DNA of 64,000 bases from Candidatus Parcubacteria bacterium (lineage in GTDB: Bacteria > Patescibacteriota > Minisyncoccia > Phycocordibacterales > UBA918): NCBI GenBank assembly GCA_021731405.1, contig JAKFXN010000003.1, positions 108,676-172,675 of the forward strand, in the 5' to 3' direction. Each line of letters opens with the position of its first letter. Positions within the stretch are counted from its first letter, which is position 1. Below are positions 3,087 through 54,179 of this stretch, piece by piece. The position numbers and the translations under genes were made by a program. Under the pieces are notes generated by a model. That model worked only from the letters and a program-made list of their open reading frames with translations, had not been told where the DNA came from and made no database searches.

Positions 3087-3851
3087 TTAGTCACGAGCGT
3101 CAAGCAAGATACTCAAGTCAGCCGTGTTTACTTTTCCGTCACCATTAAAGTCACCTTTCGGATTATTGGTTGGGAGAAGCAGTAGGAAAATACTCAAGTC
3201 AGCCGTGTTTACTTTTCCGTCGTTTGTAAGGTCTGGGTTCGGGAGAGTGTTGAGGACAACAACTTCCGCGGCTGATTTGGCTTCATGAACAATAATCTTT
3301 TCTGGCTCATTTGCACTGACGGTAAAAAGAGTATCGATGTAGTTTGTTAACACCGCTTCTGTTCCTTTCCCGTCATGCATGAGGATGAGGGTGTCGTTGA
3401 GTACAAGATTTCCGTTTCCAGGGTTTAGCGCAGTGAAGGTGACCGTAAGGAGTGTATCAGTACCAGTAAAGCCGCCTGGTCTTGTGGTGCCGCCAGCAAA
3501 GCTAATAGTACCAGCACCATTTTCGTACCACGGCGCTTCGGCCCAGAGGTCGGCCAAGGAAATGTTGTAGTCGATACTTTCTACCGCCAGCGCCCCTTCA
3601 TTAAAAGTAATTGTTCCCTTAAATGCATTTACAGGAATATCTGATGTCGTCTCAATTTTTACGGTAAAAGTTTCACCTGGAGCACTTACGTATGTGCCAG
3701 ACGTGAGCAGGATAGCAGTCTCTTCAGTTTCGGTTGGAAGGAGGTACATACCCGTGATAGCGAGAATACTCAAAATCACACTTGCGGCAATAGTAGGGGG
3801 GATGATGGTACCAGCGCTTTGTTGGATATTCATACTATATAAGTATGACAT
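3087..3851 (-). CDS. secreted/membrane-anchored protein with two C-terminal dockerin-type Ca-binding repeats
   Basis: N-terminal TM/signal segment. C-terminal DLTNDGKVNTADLSIFL and DFNGDGKVNTADLSILL (dockerin type I repeat pattern D-x-N/D-x-D-G-x-V-N-x-x-D). Confidence 0.55.
   Translation of the reverse strand: MSYLYSMNIQQSAGTIIPPTIAASVILSILAITGMYLLPTETEETAILLTSGTYVSAPGETFTVKIETTSDIPVNAFKGTITFNEGALAVESIDYNISLADLWAEAPWYENGAGTISFAGGTTRPGGFTGTDTLLTVTFTALNPGNGNLVLNDTLILMHDGKGTEAVLTNYIDTLFTVSANEPEKIIVHEAKSAAEVVVLNTLPNPDLTNDGKVNTADLSIFLLLLPTNNPKGDFNGDGKVNTADLSILLDARD
3107..3221. repeat. 33-bp perfect direct repeat, two copies 80 bp apart (ATACTCAAGTCAGCCGTGTTTACTTTTCCGTC)
   Basis: Seen at 3107–3140 and 3187–3221. 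It encodes the two dockerin repeat modules of the gene above. Confidence 0.8.
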
Positions 3852-3899: not shown

Positions 3900-4427
3900 T
3901 TAGGCCAGCGACGCTACGCCAGGGAAGCTTTCAGGCACCTTGTTTGAAGCAGGCTTCACAAAGAAACCTTCTTTTTGCGAGTACTTCACGCCAGAGACCG
4001 CGGGTCGGTCGCGCAGCAGTGCTTCGCGATCGACTTCCGTGATATAGCGCAGATACTGCGTGAGCTTCATGGCTTCCAGGTTCTTGATGACCTGTTCTGC
4101 GCCACCTTTGGCAAAAGTCACTTTGGTGGGCGGCAGACGCCAGCCAAATTCGCCACCCGTCAGCACAAGACTTTTCTTGTCACCGACAAGCAAGGTTTTG
4201 CGGTTGGCAGTTGCGTAGGTCTGGAGTGCTTTCATGCACCGCTTGTACTCCTCCTCTAGAGGCGCAGCGGCCAACTCAGCAGCACTTTTGGCTTCTGCCA
4301 CTTCTGCTTCGAGCGTGGTCTTGATGTTTGCGAGCTCGCGCTCACATTCGCCAATCTTGAAGAGAAGGGTATTCACTTCAGCAAGAGAGGCAGGGACAGG
4401 GAAGAAGGGGTTTTTACGTGCAGCCAT
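3900..4427 (-). CDS. gam: phage Mu Gam-like host-nuclease inhibitor (Ku-like) protein
   Basis: Coiled-coil N-terminus, then ...TYATANRKTLLVGDKKSLVLTGGEFGWRLPPTKVTFAKG...KNLEAMKLTQYLRYITEVDREALLRDRPAVSGVKY. This is colinear with Mu Gam (...GWCEANRDELTNGGKVKTANLVTGDVSWRVRPPSVSIRG...ETLERLGLQRFIRTKQEINKEAILLEPKAVAGV). Confidence 0.7.
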   Translation of the reverse strand: MAARKNPFFPVPASLAEVNTLLFKIGECERELANIKTTLEAEVAEAKSAAELAAAPLEEEYKRCMKALQTYATANRKTLLVGDKKSLVLTGGEFGWRLPPTKVTFAKGGAEQVIKNLEAMKLTQYLRYITEVDREALLRDRPAVSGVKYSQKEGFFVKPASNKVPESFPGVASLA

Positions 4428-5378: not shown

Positions 5379-5741
5379 ATGTCAAACAGTGTTCTTGCTG
5401 ACTTGGTCCCCGCCACCAATCTTGATGTGTCACGCTTGCCGTGGCTACTTGAGTCGAGCCCTGAGAAAGTCATTGTCCGCAACTTGTGGTTCGTCACCGT
5501 ATCTTTGTTGTCTGACTTTGCCAAACCACCATTCGAGGTGGTTGAAGAAGAGGGCTACTTTGTGCTCCATGGTTTTGATGCCAAAAGCTCTTTGCCAGCC
5601 AGCCTGCGTGTTGTGGAGGACGATACGTTCCAGAACATCCTGCAGTATCGCAATGAGCGCTACCAAATGTGGGGCAGTAGCCCGCCCGGCAACATCCTCT
5701 TCTTGCCTGCCCTTCTTGGTCCAGATCTCAAGCTCATATAA
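5379..5741 (+). CDS. hypothetical protein, 120 aa
   Basis: AGGAG RBS 7 nt upstream. Hairpin terminator follows. No recognisable domain. Confidence 0.4.
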   Translation: MSNSVLADLVPATNLDVSRLPWLLESSPEKVIVRNLWFVTVSLLSDFAKPPFEVVEEEGYFVLHGFDAKSSLPASLRVVEDDTFQNILQYRNERYQMWGSSPPGNILFLPALLGPDLKLI

Positions 5742-5747
5742 GAGCAT

Positions 5748-5780
5748 CCTCAAAAGCAACCCTAACAAGGTTGCTTTTTT
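5748..5780 (+). terminator. rho-independent terminator
   Basis: AAAAGCAACCCTAACAAGGTTGCTTTTTTCAAT hairpin followed by a T-run. Confidence 0.6.
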
Positions 5781-5837
5781 CAATAAAAGTAGTCTAATAG
5801 GCAACAGTTCCGTTCCCTCATTTATAGGAGATATGCC

Positions 5838-6539
5838 ATGCGTACCTTTCTGTCTGTTCTTTTCATTTCACTGCTTCTGGGTTGCGCCAGCAAGCCTGCC
5901 AAGCCAAGTCTGGGAATCATCTTGTTTCCCAAAGAAGTCCTCGTGCCAGCGGTCGGTTCCACAACCGTGAAGCAGTTGACTCGTGACGGCAAAACCCGTC
6001 CACCAGAAGTCATGTTCGTCCGCGAGCATTTGGACGGACGTCCCATCTTTTCGGGTAAGGTCTGGAACCACGAAGGCTCCATGGCCGAGACCGCTTCTGG
6101 TGCTGTAGTTTGGACAAGCGATTGCCCAACTCCGCCTGAACTTTTGGAACCTCCGGTGGTTCCCAACAAGTGTGACTGGACGGTCTGCTATCCCCCGAAA
6201 GACGGAACGACCTATCTGCAGACGGTTCGTTTTTACGTTCCACTTCTGGCTTGTGGTGGGCGCGACGGCACACTCTCGGTTACCACAATCGGCACGGTCG
6301 AGATTCCGGTATATGGCAGGGTCGTACACACCGAAGCCAAGCTTTTGGTGCAAGGTTTGCCTGGGGTGACGTGGCAAAGCTACATCAAGCCCGGCTTTGG
6401 CGAGGTGCACGGTAAGTCAGTCAACTGGATGACGGTGTATGAAAATACCCCCAAGCGCCGCAGTGTGGTCTTCAAGAAAAAGCTAGGTGAAACCGGTGGC
6501 TTCGCCATCGCCAAGAGCGAAGAAGTCCCGCAGGATTAA
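5838..6539 (+). CDS. lipoprotein, 233 aa
   Basis: Signal peptide with lipobox LLLGC|AS. AGGAG RBS. Confidence 0.55.
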   Translation: MRTFLSVLFISLLLGCASKPAKPSLGIILFPKEVLVPAVGSTTVKQLTRDGKTRPPEVMFVREHLDGRPIFSGKVWNHEGSMAETASGAVVWTSDCPTPPELLEPPVVPNKCDWTVCYPPKDGTTYLQTVRFYVPLLACGGRDGTLSVTTIGTVEIPVYGRVVHTEAKLLVQGLPGVTWQSYIKPGFGEVHGKSVNWMTVYENTPKRRSVVFKKKLGETGGFAIAKSEEVPQD

Positions 6540-6552
6540 AATGCGGGAAACA

Positions 6553-6585
6553 AAAGAGCGACTCCAAGAGTCGCTCTTTTTCATA
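6553..6585. terminator. bidirectional hairpin terminator
   Basis: AAAAGAGCGACTCCAAGAGTCGCTCTTTTTCAT between convergent genes. Confidence 0.6.
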
Positions 6586-6589
6586 TTTA

Positions 6590-6901
6590 TTAATCAAAGC
6601 TGCGGTGGACGTCTTCAAAGTTCGTGATCCGTCCTTTTTCGTTTACAAGTATTCCTTCTTTTTTATACAGGGTTCGACGCTTCTTTTCGTGTTCATGCGC
6701 GAGCCATACGCGCCCACCAGCGTACACAATCCGGTGCCACGGTATTGCTCGCTGGTTAGGAGCTTTACTCAAGATACTCGAGATGCTCCGCGAAGCCATC
6801 GCTCCACCACCAGCTGCGCGAGCCAAGTCCCCGTAGGTGACTACGGTCCCTTCCGGGATAGACAGCGCGAGCTCGTACACGATTTGCGAGAAAGGGGACA
6901 T
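6590..6901 (-). CDS. alkyltransferase-like protein (ATL; MGMT DNA-binding domain without the active Cys)
   Basis: VTYGDLARAAGGGAMASRSISSILSKAPNQRAIPWHRIV. The canonical PCHRV is replaced by PWHRIV, as in ATL proteins. Start placed at MSPFSQ. Confidence 0.7.
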   Translation of the reverse strand: MSPFSQIVYELALSIPEGTVVTYGDLARAAGGGAMASRSISSILSKAPNQRAIPWHRIVYAGGRVWLAHEHEKKRRTLYKKEGILVNEKGRITNFEDVHRSFD

Positions 6902-6993
6902 AAGGGAAGTATAGCAAAACAAAAACTCTCGCGAGAGAGTTTTTGTAACGTGAAGCAAGTAGGTTGTATATAGAGTCTGTAAACTCTTGCAAA

Positions 6994-7269
6994 TTACTGC
7001 ATCGACACCTTGAGTGACAAATCAAGAGCTTTGGCAATGCGGCTAAGTGTTTGCAGTGAAGGGTTGCTGTCACCTTGTTCAAGGCGAGAAATAACGGGCT
7101 GACGACTACCAATTGCTTCAGCTAGTTCAGTTTGTGACCAGCCACGCTTAATACGCTCTCTTATAATAGTTTTTACTACCTCATATTCTGCTCCAAGTGC
7201 TTCATACTCAGTTTTTACAACTGGGTGCTTGAGGGCCTTGGTTTTAAATTGTTTAAATGCAGTACTCAT
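6994..7269 (-). CDS. higA: XRE-family HTH antitoxin (HigA-like)
   Basis: GWSQTELAEAIGSRQPVISRLEQGDSNPSLQTLSRIAKALDLSLKV, a Cro/C1-type HTH. Directly downstream of the Gp49-like toxin. Confidence 0.7.
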   Translation of the reverse strand: MSTAFKQFKTKALKHPVVKTEYEALGAEYEVVKTIIRERIKRGWSQTELAEAIGSRQPVISRLEQGDSNPSLQTLSRIAKALDLSLKVSMQ

Positions 7270-7295
7270 AAAACAAATATAACTTATAAGTTATA

Positions 7296-7601
7296 TTACC
7301 GCAAGTCTTCTTTTGCAGTACGTGCTCTTGTTAATTCCTTTTCGAGCGTTTTTTGAGTTTTCTTAATACAAACGTGCAACAAAACGGCCTGTTTCTTATG
7401 GAAGCAGTAAAATATTCTAATCTCTCTAGTTCCATGGATGCGTAGTTCAATTAGCCCATCAGACAGGTGTTTACTGTGCGGCATCCCTAATTCGTTACCA
7501 AATTCTTCAAGTAATTCAATAGTACGAATTGCCTTAGCAATTTCTTTTTCATTGAGCGATTCAAGAAATGTTTCAACTGAATCAAGGAGAATAATTTGCA
7601 T
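7296..7601 (-). CDS. higB: HigB/Gp49-like (RelE/ParE superfamily) toxin
   Basis: ELRIHGTREIRIFYCFHKKQAVLLHVCIKKTQKT fits the phage Gp49-like/HigB pattern. Toxin-first order with the XRE partner. Confidence 0.65.
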   Translation of the reverse strand: MQIILLDSVETFLESLNEKEIAKAIRTIELLEEFGNELGMPHSKHLSDGLIELRIHGTREIRIFYCFHKKQAVLLHVCIKKTQKTLEKELTRARTAKEDLR

Positions 7602-7640
7602 GTAATAAGTATAGCAAACAGGGTAACAAACCTATTCGAG

Positions 7641-8153
7641 CTATAATTTCAGAAATTCTTCTATGAATGCTTTTTCGCGCTCGAGTATAAAGTGACCTTC
7701 AAATTTACCCGGAGTATCGTTCTTCATTTTTTCAAGAACTTCTATTGGTTGCATCCATAAAGTCTCGTGACCCTCTTCGATTTCTCCAGCTTCTAGTTGT
7801 CGTTTTCCAATATCACCTATTGCTTTTGCTACAAAACCATAAGAAATCTGAATCAGCTTGTACTTGTTTCGGTATTCGATGGTAACTCCAAGGGGTCTTA
7901 CAATCTCACATTTACAACCGACCTCTTCAAGGACTTCTCGTTTTAGAGCATCTTCTATATTTTCTCCTTGATTAACACCTCCGCCAGGTAGTTTGTGATA
8001 ACTATAGGTTTTGAGATATTGGGTGGACATTTCGCCCTTCTCATTTAGAAGTATTGCGCGGGCAGATTTTCTTAGTTCATATGATTCGCCAAGTTGTTCG
8101 CCCTCATCAGTCAGCCCCATGCTCTTTTCGCTGATTTCTTTGAGTATTTTCAT
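7641..8153 (-). CDS. NUDIX hydrolase
   Basis: Nudix box GGGVNQGENIEDALKREVLEEVG. Confidence 0.75.
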   Translation of the reverse strand: MKILKEISEKSMGLTDEGEQLGESYELRKSARAILLNEKGEMSTQYLKTYSYHKLPGGGVNQGENIEDALKREVLEEVGCKCEIVRPLGVTIEYRNKYKLIQISYGFVAKAIGDIGKRQLEAGEIEEGHETLWMQPIEVLEKMKNDTPGKFEGHFILEREKAFIEEFLKL

Positions 8154-8218
8154 ATGTGGAATTATATCAAAACATGCCTCAATTGAGTGAGGAAGGGTAA
8201 GGTGATACTCTTAAAGAT

Positions 8219-8560
8219 ATGAATCAAGACCTGCAAACACTCCAGGAGCGAATAAAGCAATTTTGTGCAGATCGAGACTGGTCGCAATTTCATGACCCTA
8301 AAAATCTAGCCATTTCGCTGCAACTCGAAGCTTCGGAGGTATTGGAGTTATTTCAGTGGACTAAAGATAACCAGGTCGTCAAAGGTAAAGAAGGGGAGGT
8401 GGCAGATGAACTCGCGGATGTGATGTACTGGCTACTTATGCTCGCAAATCACTACGATATAGATTTGGTTGAGGCGCTTAGTCAGAAGATGGATAAAAAC
8501 GAACAAAAGTATCCTGTTGAAAAGGCTAAGGGCACATCAGCGAAATATACAGATCTATAG
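8219..8560 (+). CDS. MazG-like nucleoside-triphosphate pyrophosphohydrolase (small, all-alpha)
   Basis: EASEVLELFQW...EVADELADVMYWLLMLANHYDIDL is the MazG/YpjD-type EExxE...DxxDV motif pattern. 2-bp gap to the next gene. Confidence 0.7.
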   Translation: MNQDLQTLQERIKQFCADRDWSQFHDPKNLAISLQLEASEVLELFQWTKDNQVVKGKEGEVADELADVMYWLLMLANHYDIDLVEALSQKMDKNEQKYPVEKAKGTSAKYTDL

Positions 8561-8562
8561 AT

Positions 8563-10572
8563 ATGTCAGAGATTAAAACCTTCCCATTTAGTCAACCAGG
8601 AGTTGAACAAATAAGAAACTACAAGTACGGCACTGATTGGCCAGTCGTCTATTTGATTGAAAATGGGAAGGAGCTTTACGTAGGTGAAACAATTAGAGCT
8701 TACGGTCGTACAAGACAGCATTTAGATAATGAAAAGCGAAGACAGCTTAATACGATTCATGTAATTTCTGACGATGAATTTAATAAGTCTGCCACTCTCG
8801 ATACCGAGTCTTCATTGATTGAGTATTTGGTAGCTGATGGGGTATATACTCTTCAAAATGGAAATGGAGGTTTACAAAACCATGATTATTTTGATCGCGA
8901 GCGTTATCAAGGAAAATTTGAATTATTGTGGAAGAAGCTGCAGGACTTAAAGATTGCAAAGAATGATTTGTTACAAATCCGTAACAGTGATCTTTTTAAA
9001 TATTCACCTTATAAAACTCTCACAGACGATCAGTATTTAATTGCTACCCAACTCGTAGAGCATTTTAAAGAGAATAAAAAACAAACATACGTTATTCATG
9101 GAGGTCCTGGAACCGGAAAGACAATACTTGCTACTTTCCTTATTAAAAAGCTAGTTGATGAAGGTAAAAAAGACATTGCCCTAGTCATTGCAATGGTTTC
9201 TCTACGAAAGACACTAAAGAAAGTCTTTCGAGGTATTCCTGGACTCAGTCCAAATATGGTTATTGGACCTAATGAAGCGGTTGATCAAAAATATGACATT
9301 TTAATAGTGGATGAAACTCACCGACTGCACCAAAGAAGAAATATTCCTAATTACGGAACCTTTGATGTTACTAATAAAAAATTAGGTTTAGGAAACGAGG
9401 GAACAGAGCTGGACTGGATTCTCTCCTCAGCAAATCAGGTAGTACTTTTTTATGATCAGCGCCAATCGGTCCGACCTTCTGATATTTCCGCTAAAAAGGT
9501 TTTGGAAACAAACCCGATTAGTTTTGAATTAAAAACACAAATGCGTGTTAAAGGGGGAGAAAATTATCTTCATTTTATAGATAACCTCTTAGAAAATAGC
9601 GCCGACACGAAAGCAAATTTTACTGACTACGAATTTAAGGTCTATGATGATTTGGGGCAAATGGTAAGTGCTATCAAAGAGCAGGAGAAAGCCCATACAC
9701 TCTCACGTATGGTAGCTGGCTATGCTTGGAAGTGGCTATCAAAAAAGAATCCTACCGTACCAGATATTGTTATTGGGGATACAAAGTTGTTTTGGAATAG
9801 TAGAATTCATGACTGGGTGAATTCACCAAATGCCATTAACGAAGTTGGTTGTATACATACTATTCAAGGGTACGATCTAAATTACACTGGTGTAATTATC
9901 GGTCCGGAAATGTCCTACGATCCAATCAAAAAAGTGATTGTGGTTGATAAATCAAAGTACCTTGATTCAAATGGACATAAAGGGGTCACAGATCCAGAAG
10001 AACTCAGGCGTTATGTTATTAATATTTATAAAACATTACTGACTCGCGGCATTCTTGGAACGTACGTTTACATAGTGGACGAAAACTTAAGAAAATATTT
10101 TAAGGAGGTGTTATCTGGAGAAAGTTTAGTAACTCAAGAAGAGGTGTCAGAAGAAGAGGTTACGCCGTCTCCTTATCAGGGAGAAGTGGTAAAGGTTCCA
10201 CTGTATGACTCAATAGGTTGTGGGGAGCTGATGCTCGCTGATTCAGTTAGTGATGAAACTGTCGATGTGCCAGCTTGGCTTATAAAACCCGGTGCAAAGT
10301 ATTTTGCGCTTCACACTCGAGGGGACTCAATGAATCAACTCGCTATTAATGATGGGGACATTATCTTGTGTCAGAAGAACCTGAATGCAACTAGTGGTAA
10401 TGCGGTCGTGCTAATAGGGGACGACGCAACCCTTAAACAGATTAAGGTAGAAAAAGATGGTTTGGTACTTATACCAAAGTCGACCAATCCGGAGCATAAG
10501 ATAAGAAAAGTGACTATTGACGACGACTTCAAGATTCTAGGAGTGTTTGTCTGTAAGATTGATAGAAACTAG
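8563..10572 (+). CDS. GIY-YIG-like + DUF2075 P-loop ATPase fused to a C-terminal LexA-like S24 autopeptidase domain
   Basis: N-terminal WPVVYLIENGKELYVGETIRAYGRTRQHL (GIY-YIG-like). Walker A GGPGTGKT, Walker B ILIVDETH. C-terminal PLYDSIGCGELMLA (cf. LexA PLVGRVAAGEPLLA cleavage region). GDSMN is the catalytic Ser. DATLKQIK is the catalytic Lys. Confidence 0.7.
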   Translation: MSEIKTFPFSQPGVEQIRNYKYGTDWPVVYLIENGKELYVGETIRAYGRTRQHLDNEKRRQLNTIHVISDDEFNKSATLDTESSLIEYLVADGVYTLQNGNGGLQNHDYFDRERYQGKFELLWKKLQDLKIAKNDLLQIRNSDLFKYSPYKTLTDDQYLIATQLVEHFKENKKQTYVIHGGPGTGKTILATFLIKKLVDEGKKDIALVIAMVSLRKTLKKVFRGIPGLSPNMVIGPNEAVDQKYDILIVDETHRLHQRRNIPNYGTFDVTNKKLGLGNEGTELDWILSSANQVVLFYDQRQSVRPSDISAKKVLETNPISFELKTQMRVKGGENYLHFIDNLLENSADTKANFTDYEFKVYDDLGQMVSAIKEQEKAHTLSRMVAGYAWKWLSKKNPTVPDIVIGDTKLFWNSRIHDWVNSPNAINEVGCIHTIQGYDLNYTGVIIGPEMSYDPIKKVIVVDKSKYLDSNGHKGVTDPEELRRYVINIYKTLLTRGILGTYVYIVDENLRKYFKEVLSGESLVTQEEVSEEEVTPSPYQGEVVKVPLYDSIGCGELMLADSVSDETVDVPAWLIKPGAKYFALHTRGDSMNQLAINDGDIILCQKNLNATSGNAVVLIGDDATLKQIKVEKDGLVLIPKSTNPEHKIRKVTIDDDFKILGVFVCKIDRN

Positions 10573-10679
10573 ATGTACGTGGAGTATTAAAATGAGTTAC
10601 GGTTGTCTATATCCCATGCAGGCCTATTTTTGTAGGTCAGCTATTGATCTATTCTGTCTGATCTGGTTAAGTTGTTTGA

Positions 10680-11144
10680 ATGGCATCGGCTCACTCTTAT
10701 AAAATAACCCTTTCCAACAACAAGACTGAAAAGCAAGCGATTGACTACTTATTGTCAATCGATAAACGGTTTTTGCTTCCAACAAAAGAGGGTAGGAAGC
10801 AACTTCTAAACGTTCTCGGTTTAGATAAGAAATACGCGCGCACCTTTGATTTATTTGTTTTGTCCGGTCACACCAGTGATGAGCAAGAAATTACATTCAA
10901 AGATGTTAAAAAAGTTATTTTGATTGAGCTTAAGACAACTCAAAAGTACCTACCAAATAATCCAAAAGGATTTTTCTTCGGAGCGACGCAAAATGAATTT
11001 GATCTAGCAGAGCAACTTGGAGAGCAGTATAAATTTTGTTTCGTCAGTCTTCATCCAGAATCGCTAGGCTATTCCCTTGTGTCGGCAATTGAATTGGAAG
11101 ACAAAGTTATAAATAAGCGAGTACAGTATCAAATAAATCTATAA
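10680..11144 (+). CDS. hypothetical 154-aa protein, possible PD-(D/E)xK nuclease-fold
   Basis: FDLFVLSG...VKKVILIELKTT resembles a D...ExK motif. It lies immediately upstream of the C5-MTase. Confidence 0.3.
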   Translation: MASAHSYKITLSNNKTEKQAIDYLLSIDKRFLLPTKEGRKQLLNVLGLDKKYARTFDLFVLSGHTSDEQEITFKDVKKVILIELKTTQKYLPNNPKGFFFGATQNEFDLAEQLGEQYKFCFVSLHPESLGYSLVSAIELEDKVINKRVQYQINL

Positions 11145-11231
11145 AGTATTTTGGTGCAATTATAGTAGTAAAACTTAAATATCCCAGGAGTGACTATATC
11201 GTGAATTGATAAACCCTGGCATAATAAGAAG

Positions 11232-12482
11232 ATGTTAAAGTCAACAAATAAAAAACCTAGGGTTTTAGATTTATTTGCTGGAGCAGGAGGTCTCTCTGAG
11301 GGCTTTGTCAGAGCTGGCTGTAATATTGTAGGTCATATCGAAATGGATAAAAATGCTTGTGAGACTCTTATCACAAGAATGGTTTACCACGCACTCCTCA
11401 AAAAGGGAAAAATTGATGAATATAAAAAATATGTGCTAGGAGAAGTTACCAGAGAGGAGTTGATTGAAAAATATAAACTACAAAAAGAGCGGGACTCAGT
11501 AATATGTGCATCTATAGGAGTAGATAACTACAGAAATTTAATAGCTACAATCAAAGAGAAACTGGGGGGTAAAAAACTGGACTTAATCATCGGAGGTCCA
11601 CCTTGTCAGGCTTATTCACATATTGGTCGAGCACGTGATAAAAATAAAATGGCTTCTGACGAGCGTAATTTTTTGTATAAATTTTATGTTGAGTTTTTAA
11701 AAGAATTACTGCCAAAAATCTTTGTTTTTGAAAATGTCCCAGGGTTAAAAACTGCTGCAGGCGGCAAGCATCTTGCGGATATGAGGGCGCTAATGTTGGA
11801 GGCTGGATACGAGACGGAATTGAGCGTCCTTAATACTGTAGATTTTGGTGTCCCGCAAAATAGAAAGAGAGTCATCTTGATTGGTTGGAGCAAAGAATCA
11901 AAAATGAAGGAGTACCCAGATTTTGATAAACTTAAGCTGGTTCGTTCGTATGTTGTCTCGGATGTTTTTTCTAACTTACCTAAATTGAAGGCAGATGATG
12001 GATCTTTGCATGTAAGAGATTTTCAGCAAGGTAGTAGTGTCCCAAGCCAGTTGATGATTAGTGACTTTGATATTTTGATGTCGCACATGACTCGGCCGAA
12101 CAACGATCAAGATTTAGAGATATACAGACATGTGGCTCTGGCTAAAAGGAAAGGTGTTGAGCTTAAGTATAATGAGCTACCCAAGGAGCTTAAAACTCAT
12201 AAAAATGAGCACGGTTTTCTAGATAGGTTTAAAGTTGTCGATCCAGCTGCAAAAGGGTCACATACAATAGTCGCTCATATTGGAAAAGACGGTCACCATT
12301 ACATTCATCCTGATGTTAAGCAAAATAGGTCTATTTCAGTGAGAGAGGCTGCCCGCTTGCAAACATTCCCGGATAGTTATAAGTTTGAGGGAGCTCGAAC
12401 TGCTCAGTTTAAACAAATTGGGAACGCTGTTCCGCCTTTATTTTCAACAATGATTGCAAAAGAGCTAATCAAACATCTTTAA
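11232..12482 (+). CDS. dcm: DNA (cytosine-5)-methyltransferase
   Basis: Motif I DLFAGAGGLSEGF. Motif IV GGPPCQAYS. Motif VI ENVPGL. Motif X QIGNAVPP. Confidence 0.9.
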   Translation: MLKSTNKKPRVLDLFAGAGGLSEGFVRAGCNIVGHIEMDKNACETLITRMVYHALLKKGKIDEYKKYVLGEVTREELIEKYKLQKERDSVICASIGVDNYRNLIATIKEKLGGKKLDLIIGGPPCQAYSHIGRARDKNKMASDERNFLYKFYVEFLKELLPKIFVFENVPGLKTAAGGKHLADMRALMLEAGYETELSVLNTVDFGVPQNRKRVILIGWSKESKMKEYPDFDKLKLVRSYVVSDVFSNLPKLKADDGSLHVRDFQQGSSVPSQLMISDFDILMSHMTRPNNDQDLEIYRHVALAKRKGVELKYNELPKELKTHKNEHGFLDRFKVVDPAAKGSHTIVAHIGKDGHHYIHPDVKQNRSISVREAARLQTFPDSYKFEGARTAQFKQIGNAVPPLFSTMIAKELIKHL

Positions 12483-12487
12483 AATAT

Positions 12488-14662
12488 ATGAAGAAAGTAT
12501 TTAAGCCACGAGCCAGACTACTATTACAGTTAGGAAATCAGCTTATAAAAAATGAAAATATAGCTCTAGTTGAATTAATTAAAAACTCTCATGATGCGGA
12601 TGCAAAAGAGTGCAAAATTGAGTTAATCAACATTGATTCTAAAGAGAATGGAGAAATCATCATTAAAGATGACGGCGTTGGTATGTCTCTACAGGTGATT
12701 GAACAGATATGGTTAGAGCCAGGAGCGGACTTTAAAGACCTTGTACTCAAAGGCAAACAATTGCCACTGAACTTGATTTATGCAGCTAAGCGTACTCCAA
12801 TTGGCGAGAAAGGGATTGGTAGGTTTGGTGTACATAAATTAGGTGATGAAGTGGAGCTGGTTACTAAAGACGCAGATTCTGAGAAGGAAATAGTAGTAAA
12901 AATTAACTGGCTGGATTTTCATGATGTCATCTATTTAGAGGATGCAACTTTTGATGTCGCAGAGAGGAAGCCTGTGATTTTTACAGGCAAGCAGACTGGT
13001 ACTGTAATGACTATACGAAAACTACGTACCTCATGGGATAAAACTATGTTTAAGGAACTGATCAGAACTGTTCTGTCGCTCAATACACCTTTTGCAGAAA
13101 AGACTAAAGATAGTTTTTCAGCTACTCTGAATCTTAGTTTAAAGAATAAAGATCAACAGTTAGAGTGGCAAGAAACAATGCTGACAGTCGAACAGGTAAA
13201 AAATTTATCTTTATGGAAAGTAAGATGCACTATCGAAGGTAATAAAATAAAGAAATTTCACTATGAATTTTTACCATATGCTGGAATGGACAAGCTTTCT
13301 AAGAAAGTGGTTACTGAGAAAAATGCTATTTTCACCAAGTATTATAATCAACTAAGAGACAGCAATAATTTACCATTTGATTTGTCATCACATGAGATTG
13401 GTCCGATTGAAGTTGAGCTTTTTCTCTTTTATCTTGGCTCGAAGGTTCTAAAACTAAGCACATCAGATCCTAGGTTGCTTAATGATTTTATGAAAGAGAA
13501 CGGTGGGGTTAGGGTTTATAGGGGAGGAATGCGCGTTTATGACTACGGGGAACCAGAAGATGACTGGCTAAACTTAGATCAGAAGAGAATAAGTAATGTG
13601 GGAGGGAGCATAGGAAATAAGCTTATTCTAGGTTCCATTTCACTAGAAAGACGCAAAAGTCTTGGGCTAATTGAAAAAACAAACAGAGAGGGTTTTGTGG
13701 AGAACGATTCATATAAAGCATTCAAGCAGTCGCTTTTGCAAGTCATTGCCATTGTCAATCATTTGAGAAATATAGATAAGTTACAAATTAAAGAAATATA
13801 TGAAGGATCAGCACAGACTGAGCCAGTTTTGCATGATGTAGATTTATTGAAGGACATAACAACTGAGAAGATCGCAGATTTTTCTGAAGGATTAACTGAA
13901 GAAAAGAAAAATGAGGTCAATAAATTTAGAGATGAAATTATTGAAGGCTTAGAAGTCATCAAAGAACAATATATTAAAAGCCACGATATTCTTATTAAAA
14001 GTGCTGGTGCTGGTTTAAGTCTTGGGGTGGTAATTCATGAAATTGAAAAAAGAATTAAAGAACTCAGAAGAGTGATAGATGTTGTTGATTTTAATGTAAA
14101 GAAGGTAAAAGAAATAGTTTTATCAATTTCTAAATTAGTTGGTAATTATTCTGTGTTACTAAGTAATACCACTAAAGAAAAAGTACAACTTTCTAAAGTG
14201 GTTGAAGATTCAATATATAACTGCTCATTTAGGTTTGAGGCTCATAAAGTTTCTGTATCCCAGCTATATAAAAAGCATAAGTTAGTCAAAATAAATTGTG
14301 CCACAAATATTATTGTTGGAGCTCTTCTCAATATTTTTGATAACTCGCTCTATTGGTTAAATGCTTATGATATTAAAGATAAAAAAATATTGATTGACTT
14401 TAATGACTACAAAGATGAGATTGGAGTCTTGGTGGCAGATAACGGTAAGGGGTTTTTATTATCGGCAGAGGATGCAATTAAACCCTTTATTTCAATGAAA
14501 AATGGAGGTACAGGCTTAGGGTTACACATTGCCGATGAAATGATGAAGATCCATAAAGGGCGCCTTGTAATAAGGAATTTTAAAGAATTTAAATCTTTAC
14601 CTAAGGAGTTTGAGCAAGGTGCCATCGTAGAGTTAATCTTTAAGAAGAATGAAACTAAATGA
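12488..14662 (+). CDS. hybrid GHKL ATPase: N-terminal MORC/HATPase_c_3-like module plus C-terminal histidine-kinase-like core (H-box + HATPase_c)
   Basis: N-terminal: ELIKNSHDADA, DDGVGMS, GEKGIGRFG. C-terminal: GVVIHEIEKRIKEL (H-box-like), LLNIFDNSLYW (N-box), VADNGKGF (G1), GGTGLGLHIADEMM (G2). Confidence 0.6.
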   Translation: MKKVFKPRARLLLQLGNQLIKNENIALVELIKNSHDADAKECKIELINIDSKENGEIIIKDDGVGMSLQVIEQIWLEPGADFKDLVLKGKQLPLNLIYAAKRTPIGEKGIGRFGVHKLGDEVELVTKDADSEKEIVVKINWLDFHDVIYLEDATFDVAERKPVIFTGKQTGTVMTIRKLRTSWDKTMFKELIRTVLSLNTPFAEKTKDSFSATLNLSLKNKDQQLEWQETMLTVEQVKNLSLWKVRCTIEGNKIKKFHYEFLPYAGMDKLSKKVVTEKNAIFTKYYNQLRDSNNLPFDLSSHEIGPIEVELFLFYLGSKVLKLSTSDPRLLNDFMKENGGVRVYRGGMRVYDYGEPEDDWLNLDQKRISNVGGSIGNKLILGSISLERRKSLGLIEKTNREGFVENDSYKAFKQSLLQVIAIVNHLRNIDKLQIKEIYEGSAQTEPVLHDVDLLKDITTEKIADFSEGLTEEKKNEVNKFRDEIIEGLEVIKEQYIKSHDILIKSAGAGLSLGVVIHEIEKRIKELRRVIDVVDFNVKKVKEIVLSISKLVGNYSVLLSNTTKEKVQLSKVVEDSIYNCSFRFEAHKVSVSQLYKKHKLVKINCATNIIVGALLNIFDNSLYWLNAYDIKDKKILIDFNDYKDEIGVLVADNGKGFLLSAEDAIKPFISMKNGGTGLGLHIADEMMKIHKGRLVIRNFKEFKSLPKEFEQGAIVELIFKKNETK

Positions 14663-15881
14663 TTATAGCGATTTTACTAAAGTTGTAATCATTGATGATG
14701 ACTACAATGAAGGTAATGAAGTTCGGAAAGCACTACTCGGTGCGGGTATTTCATCGGCTTTTTTTCATATATCGTCTAGTCAACCTGAACCTAAAGGTCC
14801 TTATAAAAATGTACGCTTAGTATTCTTAGATTTAGACCTAGACCACCTAGGCGTGCAAGAGAACCCAACTCAAGGTGCCTCAATAACATTGGCTACCCTT
14901 TCGAGGGTCGTAGATAAGAGTAGTCATTATGTTTTAGTATTATGGTCTGCAAAAACCACGAGGCCAATAGCTCGTGAGTTTAAGCGTCAACTGAAGAGAA
15001 CAAAAACAGTGGCAAATCCTATAAAAATTATAAGTTTAGGAAAAAATACTTGTAAAAATACCTCAGGAAGTTATAACTTATCAAAAATTAAGAAAGGAAT
15101 TAATTCTGGTTTAGAAAGCCTTCCCGCCTTCTCAGTCTTTTCAGAAGGAGAGAGGATTTTCGGCAATGCAATCGCTAAAACAATGGTCTCAATTTCGAAG
15201 CGACGTAGTGATCAAACTTTGTCAAAAGTTATTAATTCTTTAGCTAAAGCCAGTGCGCCACGTCCACGTGAACTAGTTGCAAATAGTGCTCTACTCAATT
15301 TCAATGGACTCATTGAAGACTCTATAGCTAGAGAAGTCTTAGCTCATGATTTTGGAGATTTACATTCTAAATTAAATGAGGAAGAGCTAAATCCCCGTCA
15401 GTGTGCAGAATTAAATTATCATTTAATTTTTTCGCCCGATAAGGTTTCTGATAGTGGTCAAATTATTTTTTTAAGAAAAAACAAAAAATTTATTAAAGAC
15501 GTTTTTGGTGACGAAATGAATTGTGAAGCATATAAATCAATGAGATGTTTTGTGGTAGAAGTAACACCGATTTGTGGAAGCGCTCAATCTAACGGTCTTC
15601 GCTATGTCATTCAAGGGGTGATTCATCCTCAGTTCAGAAAAGTAAGAACTAGTAAGGATGAAATTCGTGCAACAAATGTGTCAGGCTATACGTTTAAAGA
15701 CAGCTTTATATATAGCGGAAAAATTTGTCGAATGTCTTTTAATTTAAGATCTTATAGTACTGACATAAAGGATGTGGATTCTGGCGTAGTTAGTGAAAAA
15801 CTTCGAGCACATATTGTGATGGACATTCAACATAAAATCGCCTCTTATATTTCTCGTCCTGGACACTCATTGCTTTACTAG
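14649..15881 (+). CDS. receiver (REC)-like domain protein with unknown 280-aa C-terminal domain
   Basis: KVVIIDDDYNEGNE...VRLVFLDLDLD...VLVLWSAKT resembles a CheY-like fold. The start overlaps the previous gene by 14 nt. Confidence 0.4.
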   Translation: MKLNDYSDFTKVVIIDDDYNEGNEVRKALLGAGISSAFFHISSSQPEPKGPYKNVRLVFLDLDLDHLGVQENPTQGASITLATLSRVVDKSSHYVLVLWSAKTTRPIAREFKRQLKRTKTVANPIKIISLGKNTCKNTSGSYNLSKIKKGINSGLESLPAFSVFSEGERIFGNAIAKTMVSISKRRSDQTLSKVINSLAKASAPRPRELVANSALLNFNGLIEDSIAREVLAHDFGDLHSKLNEEELNPRQCAELNYHLIFSPDKVSDSGQIIFLRKNKKFIKDVFGDEMNCEAYKSMRCFVVEVTPICGSAQSNGLRYVIQGVIHPQFRKVRTSKDEIRATNVSGYTFKDSFIYSGKICRMSFNLRSYSTDIKDVDSGVVSEKLRAHIVMDIQHKIASYISRPGHSLLY

Positions 15882-16006
15882 CCATACACCACCTAGCAAT
15901 ATAGACGACATAGAGTGTTTGCTAAAGTCTTTAGAATTAGTCGCGCTGAATTGAAATACGTTAACTAAGGTTAAGTATCACTTATAAGACAGTTTTGTTT
16001 GGAAGT

Positions 16007-16190
16007 GGCGGAATTGGTCACGAATCACTAAGTATATTTATTCACTTCGTTCCAAATCTACTAAGTGTTCTCGACCCCAGCTCGCTCGCCTCCGGCATCG
16101 CTGCGCTCCTCAATTCCCGACGAAAGCAAAGCAGTTTGCTTTCTCCGCTCCACCATATTAAAAAAATCCCCATGAGGGGAATTTTTAATA
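16007..16190 (-). repeat. tRNA/tmRNA-3'-flank element copy (d), core-less, downstream of ssrA
   Basis: Shares left/right arms with copies at 52331, 53937 and 61925. Proximal CGGGAATTGAG is the reverse complement of the tmRNA T-arm. Distal CAATTCCGCC is a direct copy of the tmRNA 3' segment. Confidence 0.6.
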
Positions 16191-16588
16191 TGGTGGAGAT
16201 GGCGGGAATTGAGCCCGCGTCCGAATCAGGTACCACATGGTGCTTCTACAGTGTGTAGTTACTCCTTTGATTTAAAGCTTATGTCTTAAGAAGAAACAAA
16301 ACAACATAAACTCGAGTTGTTACAAGCTTAAACATATGCGACAACGGCGCTTATGCCCAGAGCCTCGTGGCTATTCTACAACCGTGCCGTATGAGGCGTT
16401 TAACACGATCGCATCGATCCGGGTCTAGGCGAATGGTTACGCTAGAGCGGGAGCGAATCCAAACGCGTTAGCGTATGGACTTGGTATTGCTTTGTTTGCA
16501 AATACAGATGGAACCTCTTTACGAATTGATTTCCAGTTTTCGACACTGCACACAATGGGTAGGCTAACCGTCGATGCCTAGCATCCCC
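16191..16588 (-). ncRNA. ssrA: tmRNA (SsrA)
   Basis: 5' GGGGAUGCUAGGCAUCGACGG... and 3' ...GCGGGCUCAAUUCCCGCCAUCUCCACCA form a tRNA-like domain. Tag ORF GCA-AAC-AAA... encodes ANKAIPSPYANAFGFAPALA*. SmpB is adjacent. Confidence 0.85.
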
Positions 16589-16726
16589 AGAAAGCACCGA
16601 AGTGTTTTCTCAGTTGAGTGAATACTCAACTATATGGAGAAAGGGAAGTAACTAAGTACTTCTATGCTTTCTGGGAATATCGTGTACGGGTGATGACGAA
16701 TCAAGGTCCAGATTCTTTCGTGGTTG

Positions 16727-17173
16727 TTATTGACTCTTCAAGATGCGGTCAATTTCGCGTTTATTGTCTCGGTCTTTAAGCGTTTGGCGCTTATCAGCTT
16801 GTTTTTTACCGCGAGCAAGCGCGATACCGAGCTTGATAGTACGTTTATTATTATACCACTTTAAAGCCACTATTGTCAACCCTTGCTTCTCGCTTCCAGT
16901 CTCCAGCTCATCGAGCTGTTTTCGGCTTAAAAGCAGCTTTCTGGCTCGTTCTGGGTCGTAGCTTTTTGGGGTATTGGCAACTTGGAAAGCGGTTACTGAA
17001 GCATTCACTAAAAAGGCTTCTCCACCACGAATAATGACATAAGCGCCATTTAAGCTGGCTTTTCCAGCCCGAATGGCCTTTACTTCGTAGCCATGCAAAA
17101 CAACCCCCGCTTCGTATTGTTCGAGGAATTCGTAGTCAAAGTACGCTTTTTTGTTTTGGATGTAATCAGCCAT
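16727..17173 (-). CDS. smpB: SsrA-binding protein SmpB
   Basis: YFDYEFLEQYEAGVVLHGYEVKAIRAGKASLNGAYVII. Adjacent to ssrA. Confidence 0.9.
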   Translation of the reverse strand: MADYIQNKKAYFDYEFLEQYEAGVVLHGYEVKAIRAGKASLNGAYVIIRGGEAFLVNASVTAFQVANTPKSYDPERARKLLLSRKQLDELETGSEKQGLTIVALKWYNNKRTIKLGIALARGKKQADKRQTLKDRDNKREIDRILKSQ

Positions 17174-17302
17174 ATAAAGTATGACGTTCTAACTATAGAT
17201 GGTATTACAACTTAGAGCAATTGGGCTTTTTTGGACAGTCTGTGGGCGTAGGGCGGTTTGCTCGTAAAGTGTGTTTTTTTCTGTATAATGCACCGTACTA
17301 TG

Positions 17303-19399
17303 TCAAATTTAGAAAACGAAAAGAAGCCAGAGAATAACGAAGAAAAACCAACTTCGGAAGTGCCTTCAACTGAGTCTACACCAGCACCTGAAGCTGAGAA
17401 AAAGGCACCTGAGCCTAAGAAAGCTCATAGTCATAATCCACTGCCGCGTTTGCGCGAGGTGGGGCACAATATGCCGATTGGTCCAGGCAACTTCTGGAAC
17501 AATATGCTTTCAACGGTACTCCTCTTGGTGCTGGTTATGATGGCGTTTAGTTACCTGACTGAATCAAAGGTGCAGCCAGAAGAACTTTCTATCTCTCAGG
17601 TGGTTACACAGGTGCAGGCTGGGGAAGTGAAGGAGATTGTCGTGCGTGGTAGTGTGCTTGAAATTAACTATAACGACGAGACTCGTGTGCGGGGTGAAGC
17701 AAAGAGAGAAACAGACGCTTCTGTTTCTGAGTCGCTTTCAAACTTTGGTGTGACTACCGAGCAGCTAGCTGCTATCGAGATTGATGTGCAGCGAGAGACT
17801 GGCTTTGCGTATTGGTTTGGACAATTTGCACCATTCCTTTTCCCGTTACTCTTTTTGATCCTGATTGTTTGGTTTTTCACTCGTTCAGTGAAAGGAGCAG
17901 GTATGCAAGCGCTCAACTTTGGTTCGAGTAAGGCTCGGATGATTGATCCAAATGACACTGCTCAAAAAGTGACCTTTAAAGATGTGGCTGGAGCAAAAGA
18001 AGCGAAGCAAGAACTGGAAGAGATTGTAGACTTCCTCAAGAACCCAAAGAAGTTTTTGGATATTGGAGCGGAGATTCCTAAGGGTGTGATGATGATGGGT
18101 GCGCCAGGTACTGGAAAGACACTGCTTGCACGAGCGGTAGCAGGGGAGGCGGGAGTGCCATTCTTCTCAATCTCTGGTTCTGAGTTCGTAGAAATGTTTG
18201 TGGGTGTGGGTGCGTCTCGAGTACGTGATCTGTTCTCAATGGCGAAGAAAGCTGCACCAGCTATCATCTTCGTTGATGAAATTGATGCGGTGGGACGAGT
18301 GCGTGGTACGGGAGTGGGCGGAGGAAACGATGAGCGAGAGCAAACTCTCAACCAGATCTTGGTTGAGATGGATGGCTTTGAGCCAAATGCCAAAGTGATT
18401 GTGATGGCTGCCACCAACCGTCCTGATGTGCTCGACCCAGCTCTCCTACGCCCTGGTCGTTTTGACCGTCGGGTGACTATCGACCTGCCTGACCGCAAAG
18501 ACCGCGAAGATATCCTTAAGGTACATGCTCGCAAGAAGCCACTGCAGGATGATGTGAACCTAGAGATTATTGCGATGCGTACCCCAGGTTTCTCGGGTGC
18601 TGACCTTGCTTCTTTGATGAACGAAGCGGCTATCTTGGCTGCGCGTGAACTTCGAAAGAAAGTGGGACAGTTTGATATTATTCGCTCAATTGAAAAGGTG
18701 ATGCTCGGTCCAGAACGAAAGAGTCATGTGCTCTCAGGTCGGGAACGACTGATTACCGCGTACCACGAAGTTGGACACGCGCTTGTGGCTTCGGTGCTTC
18801 CGTATGCAGACCCGGTACAAAAGATTTCGGTTATCTCACGAGGGAGAGCAGCGGGGTATACCCTTAAGCTTCCTGACGAAGATCGACGGATGCACACGAA
18901 GAAAGAATTCCTTGATGACATTGCGATGACCCTTGGTGGATACGTAACTGAAGAGATGGTGTTTGGTGACCTTTCAACCGGGCCAAGTAACGATCTGCAG
19001 GTGGTAGCAAACCTCGCTCGCGATATGGTGACGAAGTACGGTATGAGTGCGCTTGGTCCTGTCGCTCTTGAAGGTACAGGGGGACGAATGATTGGTGGAG
19101 GAGTTAGTGAAGACCGTGGCTACTCACCACAAATCGCCAAAGCGATTGATGACGAGGTATCTCGGATTATTCAAGAAGGAAAAGATCGAGCTAAAGAAAT
19201 TCTCACCAAGTACCGACCGGCGCTTGATGTGATCTCTAAGCGACTAGCAGAAGTGGAGACACTCGAACGAGAAGAGTACGAAGCGCTCTTGAAGCGAGAA
19301 GGGGTGGAGATTCAGGATGCCTTTAAGAAGCAACGAGAAGAAGACGCGAAGCTTGGCGATCCAAGTAAGTTGCTTGAGTCTGGAAGTGTTTTGGTCTAA
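17303..19399 (+). CDS. ftsH: ATP-dependent zinc metalloprotease FtsH
   Basis: [22 protein letters not shown], second region of homology, HEVGHAL zinc motif. Start placed at MSNLENEKK after a TATAAT box; the ORF extends to 17258. Confidence 0.9.
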
Positions 19400-23136: not shown

Positions 23137-23138
23137 AG

Positions 23139-23212
23139 TCCGTCCTCTTGGATTCGAACCAAGGACCGCAGAGGTATAAGCTCTGTGCTCTAACCAACTG
23201 AGCTAAGGACGG
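23139..23212 (-). tRNA. tRNA-Ile, anticodon UAU (loop CUUAUAC)
   Basis: Manual fold. Acceptor CCGTCCT/AGGACGG, D GCTC-AGTTGGTTA-GAGC, anticodon stem CAGAG/CTCTG, T GGTTCGAATCC. No CCA encoded. Confidence 0.65.
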
Positions 23213-32865: not shown

Positions 32866-32882
32866 ATTGTTTTTTAACTTAG

Positions 32883-32969
32883 CGGAGGATGTGGGATTCG
32901 AACCCACGAGAAGTTTAACCCTCTGGCGGTTTAGTAAACCGCTGCCTTCAGCCACTCGGCCAATCCTCC
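32883..32969 (-). tRNA. class-II (long variable arm) tRNA, Ser-like (G73), anticodon loop UUACUAA (anticodon ACU by standard numbering)
   Basis: Manual fold. Acceptor GGAGGAT/ATCCTCC, D GCC-GAGTGGCTGAA-GGC, anticodon stem GCGGT/ACCGC, 18-nt variable arm, T GTGGG-TTCGAAT-CCCAC. Confidence 0.55.
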
Positions 32970-35301: not shown

Positions 35302-35386
35302 CGGAGAAGAGAGGATTCGAACCTCCGGGGGCGTGAACCCCACTTCCTTAGCAAGGAAGCACGATAGACCACTCTGACACTTCTCC
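35302..35386 (-). tRNA. tRNA-Ser, anticodon GCU
   Basis: Acceptor GGAGAAG/CTTCTCC, anticodon stem-loop CTTCC-TTGCTAA-GGAAG, long variable arm, T GGAGG-TTCGAAT-CCTCT, G73. The D-arm is non-canonical in my manual fold. Confidence 0.65.
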
Positions 35387-54148: not shown

Positions 54149-54179
54149 AAAAATCTAAATTTCTGTTATAGTACAAGCC

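Follow-up and report, generated by a model that had tools for sequence, protein, structure and literature searches.

How did a block of compositionally foreign genes come to lie against the 3' end of the transfer-messenger RNA (tmRNA) gene ssrA of a Candidatus Parcubacteria bacterium: as one integrated element, or module by module? We addressed this question with a 64,000-nucleotide stretch of DNA (GCA_021731405.1, contig JAKFXN010000003.1, positions 108,676 to 172,675), itself from a metagenome assembly and hereafter called the window, in which an earlier note, made from the letters alone, had proposed a defence-type island integrated next to ssrA. The block consists of five modules, which are HigBA, a NUDIX hydrolase gene, a MazG-like/DUF2075-S24 gene pair, a small PD-(D/E)xK-like open reading frame (ORF), and an operon of Dcm, HK-like and RR-like genes, hereafter the trio (Table 1). 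In our judgement it is probably a mosaic of separately inherited or exchanged modules, held in a long-lived slot between ssrA and the ATL gene, and not one self-mobile element.

We analyzed the composition of the window. The interval 6924-16161 has a GC content of 0.372, compared with 0.458 for the remainder, which agrees with the 35-40% against 45-50% previously estimated by eye. In 1-kb windows, GC is 0.33-0.40 across about 7.0-16.0 kb and mostly 0.44-0.52 to either side; all 15 of the 2-kb windows inside the block (0.343-0.388) fall under the minimum of the 102 outside it (0.423), and GC is at least 0.41 everywhere in the 64-kb window except the block. Furthermore, the tetranucleotide distance between the block and the rest of the window is 0.328, while equal-length chunks elsewhere give at most 0.126. 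The profile is therefore not uniform, the block is the outlier on both measures, and it is compositionally foreign.

We then compared the locus with that of relatives found via SmpB, metagenome-assembled genomes that carry the label Candidatus Saccharibacteria, Paceibacteria or Patescibacteria. In L001 (GCA_040384005.1), SmpB is identical to that of the window and most of the aligned flank blocks share about 84-90% of their nucleotides, with 81% for the ATL block; a single terminator hairpin comes after the tmRNA gene (10589-10984), and ATL lies 66 nt away. In the BLAST alignment, L001 position 11018 corresponds to window position 16162 and L001 11029 to window 6923. Since these breakpoints adjoin, window 6924-16161 has no counterpart in L001, which represents the empty site. 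Another allele is present in L038/L039, in which SmpB, FtsH and ATL are 85%, 88% and 87% identical to those of the window. The L038 breakpoints, 3270/18824, correspond to window 6919/16193, the same two points as those of the window block, and the slot holds about 15.5 kb of partly different genes, beginning with PadR, PspC, an acetyltransferase, a methyltransferase and MazG-like plus DUF2075-S24, and continuing with AIPR, a different Dcm, a 589-aa GHKL ATPase and a zinc-finger protein. L038/L039 thus keep the MazG-like/DUF2075-S24 pair but carry another Dcm module, so that the Dcm-linked cassette was swapped and its upstream neighbour retained. The stretch 9657-17384 of L038/L039 comprises MazG-like plus DUF2075-S24, AIPR, a 350-aa Dcm and the 589-aa HATPase_c_3 GHKL ATPase (a Mza/MORC-type module).

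The wider set of relatives gave the same picture. The side running from tRNA-Ile through ftsX, ABC, ftsH and smpB to the tmRNA gene is conserved in L008, L010, L012, L013 and L014, and the other side of the tmRNA gene is unrelated in each of them (NUDIX/PLD/transporter, TetR, DUF421/FMN reductase, unknowns, and HigBA in L013). Synteny stops at the tmRNA 3' end in all of the relatives examined, and the block is accessory. The synteny comparison that the earlier note had proposed therefore found no block common to all relatives: ssrA directly precedes ATL in L001, and L038 has an alternative content at the same breakpoints. As that note had described, the block abuts ssrA with a short flank element in between. 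Indeed, the tmRNA gene, placed on the minus strand by both ARAGORN and Rfam, points its 3' end toward the block, the variable interval ends at the tmRNA 3' end, 16191, and the gene block ends 185 bp from it. The start that had been set at about 7.3 kb did not hold, since the breakpoints in two relatives place the left boundary at 6919-6923; with the boundary at about 6923, HigA belongs to the accessory block.

The definition of a tRNA- or tmRNA-gene, here t(m)RNA, island used by Islander/TIGER comprises an integrase, a regenerated gene 3' end, and a displaced 3' fragment at the far end (PMC4383910). We thus searched for each of these components. No tyrosine or serine recombinase domain was detected with Pfam, NCBIfam or PADLOC in the nine main island ORFs, and no integrase adjoins the tmRNA gene in about eight relatives inspected. 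The earlier note had located no far-side att-type repeat, and our searches were likewise negative: when the terminal 60 nt of the tmRNA gene were aligned locally to 6880-7300 and to 6500-8200, the scores stayed within the range of shuffled sequences, scanning the whole block (5500-16000) for fuzzy 19-mer matches detected no further tmRNA 3' repeat, and a general repeat search yielded chance-level short repeats only, terminator palindromes excepted. Only one direct repeat proved significant, CAATT-CCGCCACTTCCA at 16005-16022, which a single one of 300 shuffles equalled and which bounds only the 185-bp element beside the tmRNA gene. At the opposite boundary, the ATL-side hairpin at 6919-6946 and the single tmRNA terminator of L001 both have AAAAACTC...GAGTTTTT, which fits, but does not prove, that this hairpin is the displaced original tmRNA terminator. 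Of the island integrated next to ssrA, the location, foreign composition and accessory status thus stood, and integration as one unit was not supported.

The modules of the block differ in their histories. Between the window and L038, the MazG-like and DUF2075-S24 proteins are 88% and 84% identical, respectively, with 78% identity of the pair in nucleotides and 75-79% of the flanks. The divergence of the pair equals that of its flanks, which suggests a long residence at the locus. In contrast to this, a 3.7-kb block of the trio (the dcm 3' end, HK-like and RR-like) is 82.5% identical in nucleotides to L031, while ftsH reaches 76% and smpB 64%. The trio block is thus closer to L031 than the housekeeping genes are, indicating horizontal exchange with a breakpoint inside dcm. 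These two histories together argue for a mosaic in a long-lived variable hotspot. Its content would be gained and lost mainly via homologous recombination through the conserved flanks, and small non-autonomous elements would additionally insert site-specifically at t(m)RNA 3' ends.

The similarity breakpoint inside dcm lies at about 12165 in the window and at 7518 in L031, the 5' part of dcm being only 64% identical in nucleotides. This suggests that recombination may have swapped the part of the methylase likely to set the target specificity.

We next describe the small elements. In the one between the tmRNA gene and the gene block, read from the tmRNA gene, a terminator and an inverted tmRNA 3'-end copy precede a conserved core, and the tmRNA 3' end is repeated directly on the distal side, at 16005-16022. 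In the sense of the RNA gene, the layout is the gene 3' end, the terminator hairpin, a small second hairpin, an inverted copy of the gene's own T-loop, the core (...TCGAGAACACTTAGTAGATTTGGA...AAATATACTTAGTGATTCGTGAC), which holds two ACTTAGT(A/G)(G)ATT repeats, and finally the 3' segment of the gene itself, from T-loop to acceptor, copied in direct orientation. The terminator stem reaches into the acceptor strand, and the tmRNA copy pairs over 17/17 nt. Within the window, such elements follow the genes for tmRNA (element 16005-16190), tRNA-Met (gene 52261-52332, element 52333-52625) and tRNA-Asp (gene 53795-53869, element 53870-54152), with direct copies that match at 11/11 nt for tRNA-Met and 13/13 nt for tRNA-Asp. 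Among the relatives, the core is found 3' of the tmRNA gene in L007 (about 3140-3360), L011 (about 7951-8170) and L031 (about 16090-17060, three in tandem), 3' of tRNA-Ser in L035 (about 12990-13200), where the direct repeat matches at 19/19, and 3' of tRNA-Ile in L013 (about 623-800), with no clear direct repeat. The members of the family are gene-less and about 190-290 bp long, the window tmRNA copy measuring 185 bp.

The copy in L011 is informative as to their origin, since its distal copy departs in the T-loop from the tmRNA end resident there and agrees with that of L038. Such a pattern is, to judge from the sequences, what a regenerated 3' end beside a displaced original classically leaves. 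The mini-elements look like miniature non-autonomous integrative elements, and their presence shows t(m)RNA 3' ends to be sites of active site-specific insertion in the clade. Since the gene block lies past the displaced fragment, it adjoined ssrA before the mini-element arrived. The tRNA-Met and tRNA-Asp elements have no recombinase beside them, the genes that follow encoding a nucleotidyl transferase and a photolyase, and Rfam, both in the gathering scan and at permissive E-values, returned no family for the mini-element. We also considered its opposite strand as a tRNA-like RNA and rejected this candidate, as no proper T-stem could be drawn by eye.

As a separate observation, the terminator stems at window 16148-16198, L038 about 18770-18840 and L035 about 13195-13260 continue into the 3' strand of the acceptor, so that the final 8-11 nt of the RNA gene become part of a long and nearly perfect palindrome. 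The palindrome is also found in L038, at a site that lacks the mini-element core, and the L001 tmRNA terminator is without this feature.

These results allowed us to weigh other histories of the block. A classical integrase-mediated island could have entered the ssrA 3' end as one unit, its integrase then lost and the far tmRNA fragment decayed. Such an origin would account for the position exactly at the tmRNA 3' end, the low GC and the empty site in L001, as well as for the ATL-side hairpin resembling the single terminator of L001, which is expected if the original was displaced, and for a possible vestige ahead of that hairpin (GCTTCAC vs TCTCCAC); moreover, the mini-elements with their regenerated and displaced ends show that t(m)RNA 3'-end integration happens in these genomes. 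We nevertheless regard it as unlikely, because the block has no integrase, nor does the neighbourhood of the tmRNA gene in the relatives, the tmRNA end aligns to the left boundary no better than shuffled sequence does, no other repeat was found in the block, and the module histories differ. The block does resemble the known t(m)RNA-gene islands (PMC4383910) in lying immediately 3' of ssrA with atypical composition, variable presence and accessory cargo, and a regenerated tmRNA 3' end with a displaced fragment exists at the locus; however, that pair of ends brackets only the 185-bp gene-less element, whereas the 9-kb block lacks both an integrase and a far-end displaced fragment and is mixed in its module histories. 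With defence islands between core genes it shares the clustering of toxin-antitoxin and restriction-like modules in one slot, the alternative cargo at identical breakpoints, and the absence of mobility genes, but it differs from them in that a tmRNA gene forms one boundary and is itself a target of site-specific mini-elements, and in that the window block contains no experimentally validated defence system.

Another possibility is that the block was ancestral to the clade as a long-resident accessory region, the real event being a clean deletion in L001. This is consistent with MazG-like/DUF2075-S24 occupying the same locus in the more distant L038 at the divergence of the flanks, with HigBA lying near ssrA in L013 at an ftsH-like divergence (77% vs 74% nt), and with the trio lying near ssrA in L031. 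As the composition is strongly atypical, the content differs in all of the relatives, and HK-like/RR-like, being closer to L031 than housekeeping genes, require horizontal exchange, we consider this account improbable as it stands. It bears on the direction of change only, and is compatible with the mosaic in a long-lived slot that we favour.

We then investigated the trio. Dcm, whose translation contains the GGPPCQ and ENV motifs, is encoded 5 nt upstream of the HK-like gene. The HK-like protein (724 aa) matches HATPase_c_3 in its N-terminal part (6.8e-17) and HATPase_c in its C-terminal part (2.5e-11), belongs to a family with more than 3397 matches, and shows in its N-terminal module a weak match to the BbrUII/HgiDII restriction-enzyme family. 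Across 25 homologues, including the Burkholderia and Agrobacterium plasmid copies, the N-terminal Bergerat (ATP-binding) motifs E29/N33/D36, D61-G63-G65 and G106/K108/G109/G111 are invariant, as are the H-box H517-E518 and the N, G1 and G2 boxes of the kinase. The RR-like protein (410 aa) has no Pfam match and just 17 word-level homologues among 5.8 billion proteins, while the profile search retrieved 1406 cluster representatives with full-length matches. In its close homologues D16, D17, D61 and K132 are invariant and S100 is conserved beside the invariant W99; D16, D61, W99 and K132 are still invariant across 39 diverse members. By these alignments, the catalytic and phosphorelay residues of the trio are intact. 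The domains, the H-box, the REC fold and the invariant residues all agree with the GHKL/histidine kinase hybrid and REC-domain protein that had been recognized by the first reading. Furthermore, in L031/L032, L033 and L035, Dcm is every time followed by a 720-735-aa two-GHKL protein and then RR-like, among unrelated neighbours, establishing the trio as a conserved operon in four genomic contexts; in L031 no more than about 6 kb separate it from the tmRNA 3' end.

We also noted P0130 (Flagellimonas maritima, 859 aa), an HK-like homologue that is annotated as a type II restriction enzyme and carries the DNA-binding N-terminal domain of EcoRII as a fusion. Such a fusion supports a DNA-sensing, restriction-type role for the HK-like family.

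The arrangement has been described in silico: in the survey of Bellieny-Rabelo et al. 2021 (PMC8011034), 91.6% of the 'HK-like' genes with HATPase_c_3, HEF_HK and HATPase_c are linked to 'RR-like' genes, with enrichment for C5-methylases, Vsr and type II restriction-modification (R-M) genes, and the Pectobacterium homologues were found through up-regulation under plant infection stress. A literature search found no experimental follow-up of this module. On plasmids of Burkholderia and Agrobacterium we found this architecture again, likewise linked to Dcm/Vsr. The window trio is like the published module in the HATPase_c_3, His-Glu H-box and HATPase_c of its HK-like protein, in the adjoining protein, some 400-430 aa long, whose only known domain is a divergent REC, and in the Dcm gene alongside, and its RR-like protein matches that of the Burkholderia plasmid with an hhalign probability of 96% (E 1e-9). 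It differs in occurring in Patescibacteria, in having Dcm first in the order and no Vsr, and in the possible MazF/CcdB-like output fold that we propose here, which is absent from the paper.

To characterize the output domain, we modelled the C-terminal 257 residues of the RR-like protein (pLDDT 77). As a result, the MazF, Kid, CcdB and CptN toxins emerged as the consistent best solved folds, and Foldseek ranked MazF and Kid at the top, without significance. The domain thus weakly resembles MazF/CcdB toxins in the model, which is a lead and not a demonstration. Across the family, C309 (TPxCDxAQ) and G405 (SRPG) are invariant and Q394 and R403 near-invariant; to our knowledge, these are not the MazF catalytic set. 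The function that we propose would begin with Dcm marking the DNA of the cell itself. HK-like would sense the DNA status through its paraMORC-like N-terminal ATPase, whereupon it would autophosphorylate on H517 and pass the phosphate to D61 of RR-like, and the C-terminal effector of RR-like, possibly MazF/CcdB-like, would be switched on, leading to a methylation-linked restriction or abortive-infection response. That the trio is such an uncharacterised immune system, linking methylation status through a His-to-Asp phosphorelay to a toxin-fold effector, and that the mini-elements form a new non-autonomous family retargeting t(m)RNA genes via copies of the target's 3' end, is a pair of suggestions that we put forward jointly and tentatively, holding it doubtful that both are right. 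If true, the former would represent an R-M system whose 'restriction' arm is a phospho-switched abortive-infection effector.

Alternatively, HK-like and RR-like may constitute an ordinary cytoplasmic two-component regulator, for instance of methylase expression or of a stress response, and the block a miscellaneous accessory region instead of a defence island. All of the phosphorelay residues are indeed intact, the up-regulation through which the Pectobacterium homologues were identified (PMC8011034) is what such a regulator might show, and no recognised nuclease motif was found in the output domain; the RR-like protein, however, has no DNA-binding output domain either, the N-terminal GHKL module resembles restriction-enzyme modules, homologues are fused to the EcoRII N-terminal domain (P0130), and the linkage to Dcm, Vsr and type II R-M genes is tight and wide. 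We therefore give this explanation a small chance. The Dcm of the trio also matches the PADLOC model DrmMII over its full length (531 bits), a likeness to class 2 DISARM; this identity was rejected, since the methylase alone matches and no scanned island ORF matches the DrmA, DrmB, DrmC or DrmE model.

The MazG-like gene precedes the DUF2075-S24 gene by 2 nt and is translationally coupled to it. In Pfam, the DUF2075-S24 protein matched SLFN-g3_helicase (8.3e-66), Peptidase_S24 (1e-19) and, below cutoff, GIY-YIG (0.0017), and it has more than 7748 homologues, many of them in Patescibacteria and some without S24. The two genes are also adjacent in L038/L039 and, among quite different neighbours, in L040-L042, and thus represent a conserved pair in three contexts; in L041, the gene upstream of DUF2075-S24 lacks a Pfam call, yet matches MazG by tblastn. 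The translated S24 domain contains a nucleophile serine (GDSM), a downstream lysine (TLKQI) and, just ahead of it at about residue 552, a Cys-Gly pair. LexA and UmuD undergo self-cleavage that is stimulated by RecA filaments. Self-cleavage of DUF2075-S24 at the Cys-Gly site, stimulated in the same way, could release or activate the nuclease-helicase. We also tested whether this protein is Nhi or AbiO. It resembles them in the DUF2075 helicase core and the N-terminal nuclease-like region (PADLOC 5.6e-16 and 3.5e-14), but the matches (Nhi/AbiO/PDC-S41/PDC-S14) are only partial, covering just residues about 142-376 of the window protein, which moreover has a C-terminal S24 domain and an obligate MazG-like partner, neither of which is in the matches obtained. 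Both identities were thus rejected.

The remaining modules are simpler. HigB/HigA is a standard type II toxin-antitoxin pair, in which the toxin gene lies upstream of the antitoxin gene with a 26-nt gap, and the HigA-like and HigB-like proteins are 77% and 82% identical to those of L013, where the higA-like gene lies about 2 kb from the tmRNA gene. The 154-aa ORF has no match in the PDB (by sequence), NCBIfam or PADLOC. With its sub-threshold NOV_C match and D...ELK motif, it is the sole nuclease candidate for a type II R-M system, for which the methyltransferase is clear. It is not conserved beside the trio in L031, where the ORF preceding the trio, of 133 aa, shows no relationship to it. The ORFs, their translations and Pfam bear out the gene calls of the earlier note for HigB/HigA, NUDIX, MazG-like, DUF2075-S24, the small ORF, Dcm and the GHKL/histidine kinase hybrid, together with its gaps of 2, 5 and -14 nt between plus-strand genes. 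Its description of the content as defence-type likewise fits the toxin-antitoxin pair, the C5-methylase module and the nuclease-helicase.

Several results nevertheless count against our reading of the block as a mosaic of defence modules. The PADLOC scan that had been suggested for the region yielded candidate and partial matches, but its models recovered no complete known defence system in the block, and the defence functions are predicted from gene families and neighbourhood. As for the trio, the Pfam models HEF_HK (PF19191) and Response_reg_2 (PF19192) did not match the window proteins at E<=10, nor did they match 10 distant members (E<=0.01) or the Burkholderia and Agrobacterium homologues (E<=1). 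The models may be narrow, or absent from the Pfam copy used; the probable family membership is based on the shared architecture, the gene neighbourhood and the hhalign match. The junctions at 6923/16162 are seen in one assembly only, the contig of L003 spanning just 16446-18303, and the allele comparison fits either a gain in the window lineage or a loss in L001. Neither ATL, the RR-like protein, DUF2075-S24 nor P0001 matched a contig by exact sequence.

The island itself is a textbook kind of feature and fairly ordinary, and it does not overturn current views. Patescibacteria have tiny genomes, and the turnover of their defence repertoire has been little studied; the locus offers a clean three-allele case (empty, 9.2 kb and about 15.5 kb) of an ssrA-anchored defence-gene slot with no integrase. 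The analysis also places a widespread methylase/kinase/receiver module, known from in silico work, in a new phylum with a concrete idea for its output domain, and brings to light small elements by which t(m)RNA 3' ends are rebuilt. Of the leads, we find two the most interesting, namely the putative methylase system coupled to a phosphorelay, whose output may have a toxin fold, and the mini-elements that target t(m)RNA genes.

Table 1. Features of the ssrA-ATL slot and its flanks, in window coordinates
Feature	Position	Strand	Evidence or remark
ATL-like gene, 6-O-methylguanine-DNA methyltransferase DNA-binding domain only; conserved left flank	6590..6901	-	Pfam DNA_binding_1 1.3e-17; aa identity L001 94%, L038 87%
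Terminator-like hairpin, ATL-side boundary	6919..6946	-	AAAAACTC...GAGTTTTT common to L001's tmRNA terminator
Variable low-GC interval (island)	6924..16161	.	BLAST breakpoints vs L001, L038; GC
HigA-like antitoxin, Xre-type HTH	6994..7269	-	Pfam HTH_3 4.3e-17
HigB-like toxin, Gp49/RelE-ParE family	7296..7601	-	Pfam Gp49 4.8e-22; NCBIfam RelE/ParE weak
NUDIX hydrolase	7641..8153	-	Pfam NUDIX 2.7e-14; PADLOC candidate PDC-S07 1.4e-8
MazG-like NTP pyrophosphohydrolase, first gene of the conserved pair	8219..8560	+	Pfam MazG-like 1.6e-19
GIY-YIG-like N-terminus (weak), Schlafen-group-3/DUF2075 helicase, C-terminal S24 peptidase (LexA/UmuD-type)	8563..10572	+	
154-aa ORF, possible small PD-(D/E)xK nuclease (FDL...ELK)	10680..11144	+	NOV_C 4.8e-4, sub-cutoff
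C5 cytosine DNA methyltransferase Dcm, first trio gene	11232..12482	+	Pfam DNA_methylase 5.6e-62; PADLOC DrmMII 531 bits
HK-like: N-terminal paraMORC-type GHKL ATPase, H-box H517-E518, C-terminal histidine-kinase ATPase	12488..14662	+	
RR-like: REC-fold receiver (DD16-17, D61, S100, K132), helical linker, C-terminal beta-rich domain	14649..15881	+	
Gene-less mini-element between tmRNA gene and gene block	16005..16190	-	absent from L001
tmRNA gene ssrA, right flank, 3' end = 16191	16191..16588	-	ARAGORN; Rfam RF00023 108.9 bits
smpB, conserved right flank	16727..17173	-	protein identical in L001-L005
ftsH	17258-19399	+	beyond smpB as seen from block

Elsewhere in the window, a tRNA-Ile gene with anticodon TAT (23138-23212, ARAGORN) lies upstream of ftsX-ABC-ftsH-smpB, and it occupies the same position in all of the relatives (L001, L006, L008, L010 and L012-L014). 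A tRNA-Ile with a UAU anticodon is uncommon in bacteria. ARAGORN also called a tRNA-Ser with the unusual anticodon ACT at 32882-32969, besides tRNA-Ser(GCT) at 35301-35386. Finally, the conserved core flank contains a phage Mu Gam-like gene on the minus strand (3900-4427, Pfam 2.6e-26), 96% identical in L001 and 78% in L038, which appears to be a resident gene and not prophage cargo.

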